This document shows positions 14,890 to 16,920 of a stretch of 64,000 nucleotides of DNA, one piece after another. The stretch is taken from assembly GCF_056746865.1 (NCBI RefSeq), contig NZ_CM163382.1; one strand, given 5' to 3'. A program made the position numbers and the translations under genes. Positions within the stretch are counted from its first letter, which is position 1, and each line of letters opens with the position of its first letter. The notes below the pieces were generated by a model. The model was not told the DNA's origin. It ran no database searches and saw only the letters and a program-made list of their open reading frames with translations.

Positions 14890-16869
14890 ATGGGCAGACC
14901 GTTAAAAACTTTATTCAAACGTGAGCATAGTGAAGAAATCAGTAACCCGAGCGATAACCGCGCGTTTTCGCAGGTGGCGGAAGTCTATTTGTCACGCCGC
15001 CGTCTGTTACAGGCAGGCACGGTCGCCGGTGCCGCGGCAGCGTTCCCATTTCTGCTGAAACAGGAAAACGCGCTGGCGAAAGTGGTCTCCAAAGCAAGCG
15101 GTAACCTCGGCAAAGCGACGACGCTCGGTTTCACCAGCCTGCCGGTTTCCACGGAAGATACCGTTATCGTGCCGGAAGGATACATCGCGAAGCCCTTCTA
15201 CAAATGGGGCGACGCCACCGGGATTGCCGGAAATCTGCCGGTTTTTAAAACCGACGGTAGCAACACCACGGAAGAACAGGCGGCGCAGGCCGGGATGCAC
15301 CACGACGGCATGGCGTGGTTTAGCCTGCCGCAGGGCGGGAACAGCTCCGATCACGGCCTGCTTGCCATAAACCATGAATACATCGATAACGGTCTACTGT
15401 TTAAAGATGGCGATGCCAACTGGAGCGCCGATAAAGCTCTTAAAGGCCAGAACGCGATGGGCGTGTCGGTCATTGAAGTAAAAAAAGTGCCCCTGGGCTG
15501 GGAAGTGGTGCGCCCGTCATCGTTCGCACGCCGCATCACCGTTAACACGCCGATGAAAATCACCGGTCCGGCGCTGCATAACCCACTGATGCAAACAGTT
15601 GACGATCCGAAAGGCGAAATCATTCTCGGCACCATGCAGAACTGTGCCAACGGATTTACGCCGTGGGGCACCTATCTGACGTGTGAAGAGAACTGGTCCG
15701 ATATTTTCGTAAAAAAAGCAGAGATGAACCCGCTGGAAAAACGTTACGGTATCAGCGGGAGCGACGACTCTTACCGCTGGAACGAAGTGGATAAAAGGTT
15801 CAGCGTCGACGCCACGCCGAACGAGCCGAACCGCTTCGGCTGGGTGGTGGAAATCGATCCATACGATCCGCATTCAGTGCCGCGCAAGCACACCGCGCTT
15901 GGTCGCATCAAACACGAAGGCGCAGCGGTGACAATTGCCCCGGATAACCGCGTTGTGGTCTATATGGGCGATGACCAGAAATTCGAATACATATATAAAT
16001 TTGTCTCGGAAGGAAAATTCAACCCGCAGGATCGCAAAGCCAACATGCACCTGCTGGAAAAAGGCACTCTGTACGTGGCGAAATTTAACGACGACGGCAA
16101 AGGCGAGTGGCTACCGCTGGTGTTCGGACAAAATGGGCTCGACGCCAGTAAAGGGTTTGAAAACCAGGGCGACCTGTTGATTAAAACCCGTCTGGCGGCA
16201 GACGCCGTGGGGGCCACTAAAATGGACCGCCCGGAGTGGATTGCGGTCGATCCATATCACGCCGGCAGCGTTTACTGCACGCTCACCAACAACAGCGATC
16301 GCGGTAAGGAAGGAAAAGCGCCAGTGGATGCGGCCAACCCGCGCGCCAAAAACGTTTACGGCCACATCATTCACTGGTTGGAGCATAACGGTGACCCGAC
16401 CGCGCTGCAGTTTGCCTGGGATATTCTTGTGATGGGCGGTCGCACCGATACAGACAAACTGGAAACCAAAGGCAGCATGAAGGGTGCGGAATTCGGCAGC
16501 GCCGATGGCCTGAGCTTTGATCACCGCGGCGTGCTATGGATCCAGACCGACGTGTCGTCATCAACCATAAATATTAAAGATTACAAAGGCATGGGCAACA
16601 ACCAGATGGTGGCGACGATCCCCGGTACCAATGAGTTCCGCCGCTTCCTGACCGGCCCGCGCGGCTGCGAAATCACCGGCATCGCGTTCACTCCGGATAA
16701 CCGGACGCTGTTTATTAACATCCAGCACCCTGGCGAGCCAAGCGAAGGGCTTAGCGATCCGCAGCATCCGACGGCAGTATCAAGCTGGCCTGACGGCGAT
16801 AAGGCTGGTCGTCCGCGCTCCTCAACTGTCGTTATCGTAAAAGCCGACGGCGGCATAATCGGCACCTGA
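14890..16869 (+). CDS. phoX: PhoX-family alkaline phosphatase (Tat-secreted)
   Basis: 659 aa; Tat motif SRRRLLQAG near the N-terminus; length and composition fit the PhoX (DUF839) family. Confidence 0.7.
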   Translation: MGRPLKTLFKREHSEEISNPSDNRAFSQVAEVYLSRRRLLQAGTVAGAAAAFPFLLKQENALAKVVSKASGNLGKATTLGFTSLPVSTEDTVIVPEGYIAKPFYKWGDATGIAGNLPVFKTDGSNTTEEQAAQAGMHHDGMAWFSLPQGGNSSDHGLLAINHEYIDNGLLFKDGDANWSADKALKGQNAMGVSVIEVKKVPLGWEVVRPSSFARRITVNTPMKITGPALHNPLMQTVDDPKGEIILGTMQNCANGFTPWGTYLTCEENWSDIFVKKAEMNPLEKRYGISGSDDSYRWNEVDKRFSVDATPNEPNRFGWVVEIDPYDPHSVPRKHTALGRIKHEGAAVTIAPDNRVVVYMGDDQKFEYIYKFVSEGKFNPQDRKANMHLLEKGTLYVAKFNDDGKGEWLPLVFGQNGLDASKGFENQGDLLIKTRLAADAVGATKMDRPEWIAVDPYHAGSVYCTLTNNSDRGKEGKAPVDAANPRAKNVYGHIIHWLEHNGDPTALQFAWDILVMGGRTDTDKLETKGSMKGAEFGSADGLSFDHRGVLWIQTDVSSSTINIKDYKGMGNNQMVATIPGTNEFRRFLTGPRGCEITGIAFTPDNRTLFINIQHPGEPSEGLSDPQHPTAVSSWPDGDKAGRPRSSTVVIVKADGGIIGT

Positions 16870-16893
16870 TTCTGTTTCATCCGTCATTAAAAA

Positions 16894-16920
16894 CGCAGGC
16901 GCGGTTAGCCTGTGTTTTTA
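16894..16920 (+). terminator. Putative rho-independent terminator after phoX
   Basis: CGCAGGC-loop-GCCTGTG hairpin (7 bp, one G-U pair) followed by TTTTTAT. Confidence 0.4.

Follow-up and report, generated by a model that had tools for sequence, protein, structure and literature searches.

The 64,000-nucleotide stretch of DNA analysed here (contig NZ_CM163382.1 of RefSeq assembly GCF_056746865.1), referred to below as the window, carries an intact phoX gene on a degraded E. coli island, and we show that this gene is derived from a Cronobacter chromosomal gene, of which mobile DNA of Escherichia took up no more than the 2.2-kb transcription unit. We propose, with a probability of roughly three in four, that the locus is a self-contained single-gene phosphate-scavenging module. 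Its product, judged from its sequence and its relatives, is probably a stand-alone, Pho-regulated Fe/Ca phosphatase with predicted Tat export. If so, phoX still looks functional among its wrecked neighbours because it was acquired as a self-contained single-gene unit. The protein is already annotated, RefSeq having named it PhoX family (WP_000533456.1) before this analysis, and since that name is correct the annotation is unchanged. What is new here is the Cronobacter origin, the limits of the transferred patch, the finding that the ABC transporter beside it is not an ancestral neighbour, the clade formed by the Escherichia alleles, and their amelioration and dN/dS.

The phoX gene and its signals

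The transcription unit consists of the following features.

14803-14820, plus strand: Pho-box-like site TTGTTATATTTCCGTAAC, two 11-bp-phased half-sites, 13/18 match to the consensus
14831-14836, plus strand: -10-like hexamer TAGACT; T52, A53 and T57 are invariant in a 21-sequence upstream alignment
14878-14882, plus strand: Shine-Dalgarno AAGGA, 7 nt upstream of the ATG; its GGA core does not vary across the upstream alignment
14890-16869, plus strand: phoX CDS, intact, 659 aa, ATG start (PGAP: PhoX family protein WP_000533456.1)
14890-15078, plus strand: predicted Tat signal peptide, aa 1-63 (N-terminal alignments; TIGR01409 match over aa 34-52 that passes its cutoff)
16884-16923, plus strand: intrinsic-terminator-like hairpin with an A-run, an 8-bp GC-rich stem, a 7-nt loop and a T-run

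An earlier reading of this DNA, made from the sequence only, had called the gene an intact, Tat-dependent PhoX phosphatase and had proposed a profile search as a check, with the lack of a PhoX-family match as refutation. The search decisively rules out that refutation: PF05787 (PhoX; COG3211) matches with E=1e-165 and 553 bits against a cutoff of 24, and residues 80-615 align with profile positions 2-515 of 515, which is the whole profile. The P. fluorescens PhoX structure 3ZWU_A is matched with E=2.2e-167 (aa 70-658 against chain residues 2-585). The uninterrupted ORF has the same length as its Cronobacter orthologue, 659 aa, with zero gaps, and all 244 alignment columns that are at least 97% conserved among 80 homologues are kept in the window protein, R36, R37 and both conserved cysteines included. 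These cysteines are C252 and C265, one of which is a candidate iron ligand; when 4AMF and 3ZWU were compared for a cysteine variant that would mark the metal ligand, they were identical around QNCANG. We conclude that 14890-16869 is a real, intact PhoX-type alkaline phosphatase gene, whose catalytic activity is predicted. As an accessory gene it is unremarkable, and its evolutionary history is tidy.

The leader consists of a 35-aa n-region, the motif S35-R-R-R-L-L-Q41, the hydrophobic core GTVAGAAAAFPFLL and A61-L-A63, followed by K64. It thus has the S/T-R-R-x-F-L-K-type motif, the hydrophobic core and the AxA cleavage site expected of Tat substrates, and the Tat dependence that had been proposed is supported by the SRRRLLQ leader with its ALA/K site and by twin arginines R36 and R37 that are at least 97% conserved in the 80 homologues. 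The TIGR01409 score is 17.8 against a cutoff of 16.7, and the Pfam TAT_signal score of 16.7 is under its cutoff of 22.7. The solved mature PhoX (3ZWU) aligns from aa 70 of the window protein, which is past the predicted cleavage site. The n-region also has a conserved motif, sN-s-NpafS-v, which a cofactor-proofreading step preceding Tat export might recognise. Both phosphatase activity and Tat dependence are predictions from sequence and family precedent.

The Pho-box-like site was scored against the E. coli consensus; a Pho box is a pair of 7-bp direct repeats with 11-bp phasing that takes the place of a -35 element about 10 bp before the -10. Matches at the 13/18 level number 20 in the window on both strands, equally good ones arising by chance, and the correctly spaced TAnnnT is found in only 2 of the 20. 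The second half-site is CCGTAAC. The site at 14803-14820 is the orthologue of the motif TGTTATAAAnnTGTAACA. In an alignment of 21 upstream regions from Enterobacteriaceae the core columns of this motif do not vary, and its distance from the -10 is fixed (10 nt in the window); the site is also present in Cronobacter, and distant phoX homologues have canonical CTGTCATAAAACTGTCAC-type boxes upstream. The site is a candidate Pho box, through which phoX is probably Pho-regulated. At the other end, the sequence-only reading was right in giving the gene its own terminator-like hairpin, and its end coordinate, 16920, falls at this terminator. The hairpin lies 3' of the stop codon, is followed by a T-run and has a dG of -19.2 kcal/mol (z=-3.3 against shuffles), and its stem is the same in the Cronobacter downstream sequence. 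A terminator consensus scan reported it on the minus strand only; it looks bidirectional because there is an A-run on one side and a T-run on the other.

Cronobacter origin and the flanking debris

The features on either side of the unit, with the ends of the patch that is homologous to Cronobacter, are as follows.

13545-14248, minus strand: IS3-family (IS911-like) transposase pseudogene of the left flank (PGAP on EC6563: frameshifted, internal stop, incomplete)
14284-14717, no strand assigned: IS110-family-related remnant directly left of the phoX patch (87-93% nt matches)
14733-14802, plus strand: left-hand limit of the patch homologous to Cronobacter, in upstream intergenic DNA (blastn)
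16924-16970, plus strand: right-hand limit of the patch homologous to Cronobacter, with its breakpoint at about 16970-16972
16966-17520, plus strand: ABC permease pseudogene, N-terminus missing, frameshifted (PGAP, matching strains), with split ORFs 17000-17341 and 17338-17520
17523-18189, plus strand: short ABC ATPase pseudogene (PGAP: frameshifted)
18827-21243, plus strand: IS66-family element with tnpA, tnpB and tnpC intact (ORFs; PGAP names in strain 1517k)
21348-21870, plus strand: internally deleted remnant of a UgpB-like solute-binding protein (tblastn: matches aa 1-43 and 192-328 of the copy that is intact in EC6563)

The PGAP calls were borrowed from near-identical strains, window 13521-22275 being 99.5% identical to 1517k and 1-18745 being 99.97% identical to EC6563. 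The left flank has IS911 matches and an HTH_21 domain in the ORF 13533-13874. The IS110-related remnant, which matches parts of Klebsiella and Rahnella plasmids that bear the annotation IS110 family transposase, has no intact ORF and no Pfam match between 14284 and 14717. To the right, the ABC transporter is destroyed as had been stated, since the permease is truncated as well as frameshifted and ABC_tran profile positions 6-59 and 80-137 fall in two different frames of the ATPase pseudogene. The UgpB-like remnant carries SBP_bac_1/8 domains, and the IS66 element is absent from the corresponding place in EC6563 and EC332. The gene thus does lie between IS sequences, with IS3 and IS110 debris on its left and the dead ABC genes and then an intact IS66 element on its right. 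It is also one of few long intact cargo genes: in the annotation of the matching strains, window 1-30 kb has no other complete, intact non-IS ORF of at least 180 aa. The cargo gene amiC is truncated by the window start, and the window has no tRNA gene that would mark an integration site.

Nucleotide homology to Cronobacter chromosomes is limited to about 14733-16970 of the window. By blastn it starts at 14733 for C. dublinensis and at 14790 for C. sakazakii, C. malonaticus and C. universalis, and for C. universalis and C. turicensis it stops at 16965-16970. The homologous patch is the phoX transcription unit, with Pho-box-like site, -10, RBS, CDS and terminator. The protein is 96% identical to C. 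sakazakii PhoX and 94-96% identical to the chromosomal PhoX proteins of the Cronobacter species compared. A scan of species-representative genomes missed Cronobacter and gave Franconibacter and Siccibacter (80%) as best matches; the donor genus was found only through an exact-sequence cluster look-up. We found nothing relevant in the literature on PhoX in E. coli islands or in Cronobacter.

Two plasmid alleles, on the E. albertii IncI-gamma/K1 plasmid pEA8_2 and on the E. coli IncF plasmid CP099215, are the same captured gene and are sister to the window allele. They are IS-flanked islets like the window gene and are 93-94% identical to it in nucleotides, but have other left junctions and on the right reach 15 nt into the Cronobacter metN-like gene. 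In a tree the three Escherichia alleles group together within Cronobacter, with monophyly in 200/200 bootstraps, and 14 derived changes are common to all three. This monophyly and these shared changes lead us to reject the idea that the chromosomal and plasmid alleles were captured independently. The window sequence parts from both plasmid alleles after ...CAACGCTTTGTCG. The right boundary at 16969/70 was considered as the end of a mobile unit and rejected, the plasmid alleles running on together past it; it reflects a single event because only the chromosomal allele breaks there.

The comparison of GC content and synteny that had been suggested as a further check also sets the patch apart. 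Its GC content is 54.5% versus 45.8% downstream. The Cronobacter neighbours of phoX are inositol-catabolism (iol)/MFS genes and a metNIQ-like transporter, unlike those in the window; in five Cronobacter species the metNIQ-like system comes after phoX, and this system has its genes in another order and a binding protein of the Lipoprotein_9 type. The ABC transporter, the UgpB-like protein and a phytase-like esterase were rejected as ancestral neighbours, being absent beside phoX in Cronobacter and other Enterobacteriaceae. No partner gene, such as one for a chaperone, is conserved beside phoX across distant taxa in 80 loci, where synteny is lineage-specific only; the TonB-dependent receptor upstream of phoX in Enterobacter and Leclercia is one such lineage-specific case. 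The description of phoX as a surviving islet therefore stands in that an intact gene lies amid debris, but it is not the last survivor of a cargo block since the patch has a separate origin.

Carriage and constraint in Escherichia

The identical protein, WP_000533456.1, is encoded on at least 998 contigs, and full phoX is present in 98 of 5426 complete E. coli genomes (about 1.8%). Loss is common because about 370 other E. coli records hold phoX only as a remnant reduced to 112 bp. Identity among the 94 chromosomal copies is 99% or more, and this near-identity could be due to clonal spread rather than selection. Among the phoX-positive matches listed, the hosts are mostly poultry and humans, and in related islands the iron-uptake adhesin gene iha adjoins phoX. 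There are three distinct left junctions, namely that of the window, an IS2 at the equivalent of 14772 and a break at the equivalent of 14806. The Pho-box-like site is spared in all of them, and promoter and terminator are kept at three different junctions.

The Escherichia alleles show strong GC-to-AT amelioration. Of 82 derived substitutions in the window allele, 73 change GC to AT, yet its reading frame is free of stop codons and frameshifts; its GC3 has fallen from about 78% to 66% (77-80% in Cronobacter). The dN/dS is 0.13 among the Escherichia alleles versus 0.02-0.06 within Cronobacter, and, being 3-6 times higher (Fisher p about 1e-3), it indicates that constraint was relaxed after transfer, yet is clearly sub-neutral. 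As a gauge of whether the gene is intact, dN/dS is 0.06-0.13 and neutrality is rejected; the nonsynonymous fraction is far under the neutral expectation (binomial p=4e-26 and 4e-15), and this holds for the plasmid pair as well.

Proposed function, rival explanations and significance

We propose that under phosphate limitation the host PhoB would bind the Pho-box-like site at 14803-14820, which would replace a -35 element. The transcript would begin a few bases past the TAGACT -10 and stop at the hairpin at 16884-16923. As in the literature on the family, the 659-aa precursor would be folded in the cytoplasm and gain its Fe3+/Ca2+ cofactor there; it would then be exported by the host Tat system through the SRRRLLQ leader and cleaved after ALA63. 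The periplasmic enzyme would free phosphate from organic phosphomonoesters, zinc not being needed. The unit would depend on no neighbouring gene and on core host functions only (PhoBR, TatABC, iron and calcium), and because of this it would stay functional whatever IS elements do to its flanks. In contrast, a three-component ABC transporter would be disabled by one lesion.

The closest known systems are the chromosomal PhoX proteins of C. sakazakii, C. malonaticus, C. universalis, C. turicensis and C. dublinensis, with the same 659 aa, Pho-box-like site, RBS and terminator stem. The window copy differs in being on a degraded E. coli island amid IS debris and not between iol/MFS and metNIQ-like genes; its -10 is TAGACT whereas that of C. 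malonaticus is TAGCCT. P. fluorescens Pf0-1 PhoX (PDB 3ZWU/4ALF), a structurally defined Fe3+/Ca2+ alkaline phosphatase, aligns with the window protein end to end over the mature domains and shares the QNCANG and LTCEEN cysteine motifs, but it is from a different genus with about half of the residues identical, and the cofactor and monoesterase specificity predicted here are extrapolated from it. E. coli PhoA (PF00245) has the same expected role of periplasmic Pho-regulon phosphomonoesterase and is not homologous, which makes it a functional analogue; it is Sec-exported, Zn/Mg-dependent and needs disulfide bonds. C. jejuni PhoX is likewise a PhoX-family enzyme that is Tat-translocated and induced on phosphate starvation by the PhosS/R system, according to a passage in PMC6250842 that cites Drozd 2011 and Wosten 2006. 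It is far more distant in sequence, PhosS/R-controlled and co-transcribed with tlp2, whereas the window gene looks monocistronic and has a PhoB-type box.

Could phoX instead be the last survivor of one decayed phosphorus-uptake operon, having arrived together with the ABC permease and ATPase, the UgpB-like protein and the phytase-like esterase? All of these members can plausibly be tied to organophosphate use, EC6563 has intact UgpB-like and PF13449 phytase-like genes downstream, and a phytase-like gene adjoins phoX on the E. albertii plasmid as well as a phoX homologue of 66% protein identity in a Lautropia MAG. However, the Cronobacter homology ends at 16970, exactly at the start of the N-terminally truncated permease, the GC content is lower downstream of the patch, the window's ABC system is beside phoX in 0 of 80 homologue loci, and it is the metNIQ-like system with its Lipoprotein_9 binding protein that follows phoX in the five Cronobacter species. 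We regard a common arrival as hardly credible. A PhoX-fold enzyme with another main activity (phosphodiesterase, nucleotidase or a phosphite-oxidising side activity) in place of general phosphomonoesterase would fit a family whose substrate range varies: Ramlibacter PhoX1 is reported to be intermediate between monoester-specific and broad activity (PMC5768637), and the title of a 2025 paper refers to promiscuous alkaline phosphatases acting on phosphite. We think this quite improbable for the window protein, which retains every family-conserved position and, over the whole alignment, is about 55% similar to the monoester-specific enzyme of P. fluorescens without large indels.

It is also conceivable, although we consider it unlikely, that this is a genuine PhoX gene which E. 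coli does not use, left intact by recent clonal spread of the island and by chance misses of IS elements, its low dN/dS being mostly older than the loss of its role. The rare carriage, the near-identity of the 94 chromosomal copies, the scraps of 112 bp in other records, the raised dN/dS and the degenerate Pho-box-like site are all in keeping with such a passenger. Yet 82 substitutions with a stop-prone GC-to-AT bias have left zero stops or frameshifts and every one of the 244 conserved positions unchanged, the nonsynonymous fraction is far below neutral, the plasmid pair included, and promoter and terminator survive at three junctions. Returning to the self-contained module that we favour, we put forward more tentatively that a single captured Cronobacter unit persisted for as long as it took to lose about 12 points of GC3 and was trimmed repeatedly down to promoter and terminator but never breached, perhaps because selection keeps a zinc-independent Fe/Ca phosphatase as a niche factor in some E. 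coli lineages.

PhoA is the textbook enzyme of laboratory E. coli, and most discussion of PhoX concerns marine and soil bacteria. A PhoX that originated in Cronobacter is present in about 2% of complete E. coli genomes and on some plasmids of E. albertii and E. coli. This is a small, concrete case of a regulation-complete single gene that crossed between enterobacterial genera and is intact beside decaying multi-gene neighbours. Should the enzyme be active, these strains would gain zinc-independent, iron-dependent access to organic phosphate, and this might be of importance in zinc-withholding hosts.

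The intact phoX gene

The window belongs to an island of the E. coli chromosome; identity to strain EC6563 is 99.97% over 1-18745, and to strain 1517k 99.5% over 13521-22275. The sequence-only reading had described an intact Tat-dependent PhoX phosphatase with its own terminator-like hairpin, surviving as an islet between IS remnants beside a destroyed ABC transporter. All parts of this observation are confirmed and its interpretation is supported. The features concerned are:

Left of phoX: IS3-family transposase pseudogene (PGAP)
14284-14717, left of phoX: IS110-related stretch, matching IS110-annotated DNA on other plasmids
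14803-14820, phoX upstream region: Pho-box-like site TTGTTATATTTCCGTAAC
14831-14836, phoX upstream region: -10-like hexamer TAGACT
7 nt 5' of the phoX ATG, plus strand: Shine-Dalgarno AAGGA (direct reading)
14890-16869, plus strand: phoX ORF, 659 aa, ATG start
Within the phoX product: predicted Tat leader, S35-R-R-R-L-L-Q41, hydrophobic stretch, A61-L-A63, then K64 (direct reading)
16884-16923, 3' of the phoX stop: terminator-like hairpin (A-run, stem, loop, stem, T-run; -19.2 kcal/mol, z=-3.3 against shuffles)
Right of phoX: 'iron ABC transporter permease' pseudogene, N-terminus missing, frameshifted (PGAP)
Right of phoX: ABC ATPase pseudogene, frameshifted (PGAP)
18827-21243, after the ABC remnants: intact IS66-family element, tnpA/B/C
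21348-21870, after IS66: deleted UgpB-like binding-protein remnant

The gene is intact, with an uninterrupted ORF, and its product keeps all 244 positions that are conserved at 97% or more across 80 homologues. The family assignment also stands, since Pfam PF05787 (PhoX) is matched from profile position 2 to 515 of 515 with E=1e-165; residues 70-658 align with residues 2-585 of the 3ZWU chain, the solved Pseudomonas fluorescens PhoX (E=2e-167). The protein and its family are already known at annotation level and correctly named, PGAP calling it 'PhoX family protein' (WP_000533456.1) on the EC6563 and 1517k sequence. Literature searches on PhoX in E. coli islands and in Cronobacter found no paper on this protein.

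Surroundings and origin of the phoX patch

The IS debris is as described, with the IS3 pseudogene and IS110-related stretch on the left and the IS66 element on the right. The transporter is indeed destroyed, its permease truncated and frameshifted and its ATPase frameshifted, with the halves of the ABC_tran domain in different frames. The IS66 element (window ~18746-21300) is present in 1517k and missing at the same place in EC6563 and E. coli EC332, and is therefore a recent, polymorphic insertion.

Among species-representative genomes the best protein identity was 80% (Franconibacter and Siccibacter), and Cronobacter PhoX falls in the 90% cluster of the exact window protein. The C. sakazakii protein (659 aa) is 96% identical to it without gaps, and 98% identical to that of the plasmid allele. 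The phoX gene of five Cronobacter species is on the chromosome, preceded by inositol-catabolism/MFS genes (in C. dublinensis, malic enzyme instead) and followed by a metNIQ-like transporter, in some cases across an intervening hypothetical gene of 340 aa. Nucleotide homology to these loci (88-93% identity) is confined to a stretch starting at 14790 (14733 for C. dublinensis) and ending at 16919-16970; the stretch holds hardly anything beyond the phoX transcription unit, and its terminator stem and upstream motif are the Cronobacter ones. The window splits from the plasmid alleles at ~16972, the start of the truncated permease. The broken ABC system differs from the metNIQ-like neighbour in gene order and binding-protein family and was not found beside phoX in any of 80 homologue loci. 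We therefore reject the idea that phoX alone outlived a decayed operon next to it; phoX is a separately acquired 2.2-kb patch. In this sense 'islet' is accurate, the patch having 54.5% GC against 43-46% in the flanks and a synteny differing from that of Cronobacter.

Downstream of the ABC remnants EC6563 has an intact UgpB-like binding protein and an intact PF13449 'phytase-like esterase' (L002:19810-21126, 22621-23964). On the E. albertii plasmid (L003:11345-14819) a phytase-like gene, 91-93% identical, is split by IS21 and convergent to phoX, and a Lautropia MAG (L053:2110-3396) has a similar convergent pair (66% protein identity for the phoX homologue, 55% for the phytase-like gene). Such pairings may mean that genes for scavenging phosphorus associate repeatedly on mobile DNA. 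Elsewhere in the window, a group II intron reverse transcriptase/maturase gene (ltrA, 11374-12882, plus strand) has an internal stop according to PGAP on identical EC6563 sequence, the longest ORF being 11359-12600. An IS3-family element of 1.31 kb occurs three times (41705-43014, 45364-46673 and 50678-51987), with 95% identity to an element in 1517k; its first copy and the end of a type I restriction R-subunit ORF (39019-41940) overlap. This ORF encodes 973 aa in the window versus 1078 aa in EC332, so that hsdR is apparently truncated.

Predicted expression and export signals

The hairpin, with its T-run and folding energy, bears out the terminator-like structure noted for phoX. In a consensus terminator scan it came up solely on the minus strand, which is consistent with a terminator that works in both directions. 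An upstream motif, TGTTATAAAnnTGTAACA, with invariant core columns is common to 21 Enterobacteriaceae phoX orthologues, all with TAnnnT at a fixed distance 3' of it, and canonical CTGTCATAAAACTGTCAC-type Pho boxes occupy the equivalent place in more distant homologues. The window site agrees with the E. coli Pho-box consensus at 13/18 positions. Matches of this strength number 20 in the window (2 with a correctly spaced -10-like hexamer), so the case for a Pho box rests on orthologous position and conservation and not on score. The left junctions differ in the three allele contexts (homology to 14733 in the window, IS2 at the 14772-equivalent, a break at the 14806-equivalent) and all three spare the site. 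The -10 hexamer is TAGACT in all three Escherichia alleles versus TAGCCT in C. malonaticus (L088:7941-7946), one change that brings it closer to the sigma-70 consensus and might mirror promoter adaptation to a new host.

The predicted twin-arginine leader is upheld by NCBIfam TIGR01409 on residues 34-52 (17.8 vs cutoff 16.7) and by direct reading of its motif; Pfam TAT_signal scored 16.7, under its cutoff of 22.7. Before the twin arginines lies a conserved 35-residue n-region (window 14890-14994, aa 1-35) whose motif, sN-s-NpafS-vl...lSRR-lLq, is present in 40 homologues below 70% identity, including Neisseriaceae, Pasteurellaceae, Moraxella and Wohlfahrtiimonas. N19 and S27 are conserved at 97% or more across 80 homologues. 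The motif might be a candidate recognition site acting ahead of Tat export; no chaperone gene adjoining phoX was found among the neighbours of the homologue loci. The island also carries amiC (1-1243, minus strand, cut at the window start; PGAP on EC6563 and EC332), and since PGAP notes that AmiC depends on Tat export, AmiC joins PhoX as a predicted Tat substrate encoded by this degraded island.

Distribution, constraint and proposed role

Of 5426 complete E. coli genomes, 98 have full phoX; 94 copies are chromosomal (at least 99% identity) and four are on plasmids (~93.6%). Clonal spread may explain why the chromosomal copies are nearly identical. The identical protein, named PhoX family phosphatase, occurs on at least 998 contigs of a large collection. 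Birds, chickens included (Gallus, Milvus), were the hosts of about half of the best 25 chromosomal matches, and humans of most others. About 370 further E. coli chromosome and plasmid records, BL21 derivatives included, have only a 112-bp internal remnant (window 15752-15863), annotated as partial 'alkaline phosphatase'; this frequent reduction shows that phoX is dispensable in many lineages. The remnant is nearest to C. sakazakii (95.5%), nearer than to any full-length Escherichia allele. In BL21(RP) it lies at L085:4000-4140 (chromosome 964085-964225), adjoining a 3.5-kb autotransporter gene and CbtA-type toxin genes.

By neighbour-joining the chromosomal and two plasmid alleles (E. albertii IncI-gamma/K1 pEA8_2 and E. 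coli IncF CP099215) form one clade (200/200 bootstraps), which falls inside Cronobacter, C. dublinensis branching outside it. All three Escherichia alleles have 14 derived changes in common at sites where the five Cronobacter genes are invariant, which supports a single capture. Derived changes in the window allele run GC to AT 73 vs 5 (p=1.5e-16) and GC3 falls from 77-80% to 66%, which indicates long residence outside Cronobacter. Escherichia alleles have a dN/dS of 0.13-0.14 and Cronobacter species, compared at similar dS, one of 0.02-0.06 (Fisher p about 1e-3); the Escherichia value is still far under neutrality (binomial p=4e-26 and 4e-15). Given also the retained conserved positions, constraint is relaxed but real.

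On the best-supported reading phoX would be a monocistronic module switched on by PhoB under phosphate scarcity. Its product would be exported folded through Tat and serve in the periplasm as a phosphomonoesterase that uses an Fe3+/Ca2+ cofactor. The cofactor chemistry and the Tat precedent are those published for P. fluorescens and C. jejuni PhoX (PMC6250842) and not for the window protein. No partner gene conserved beside phoX in distant taxa was found in the 80 homologue loci, so the module would depend only on core host functions and, because of this, would tolerate any damage to its flanks. What the analysis adds is a Cronobacter origin, a foreign patch that coincides with a transcription unit, and a signal of amelioration and relaxed constraint.
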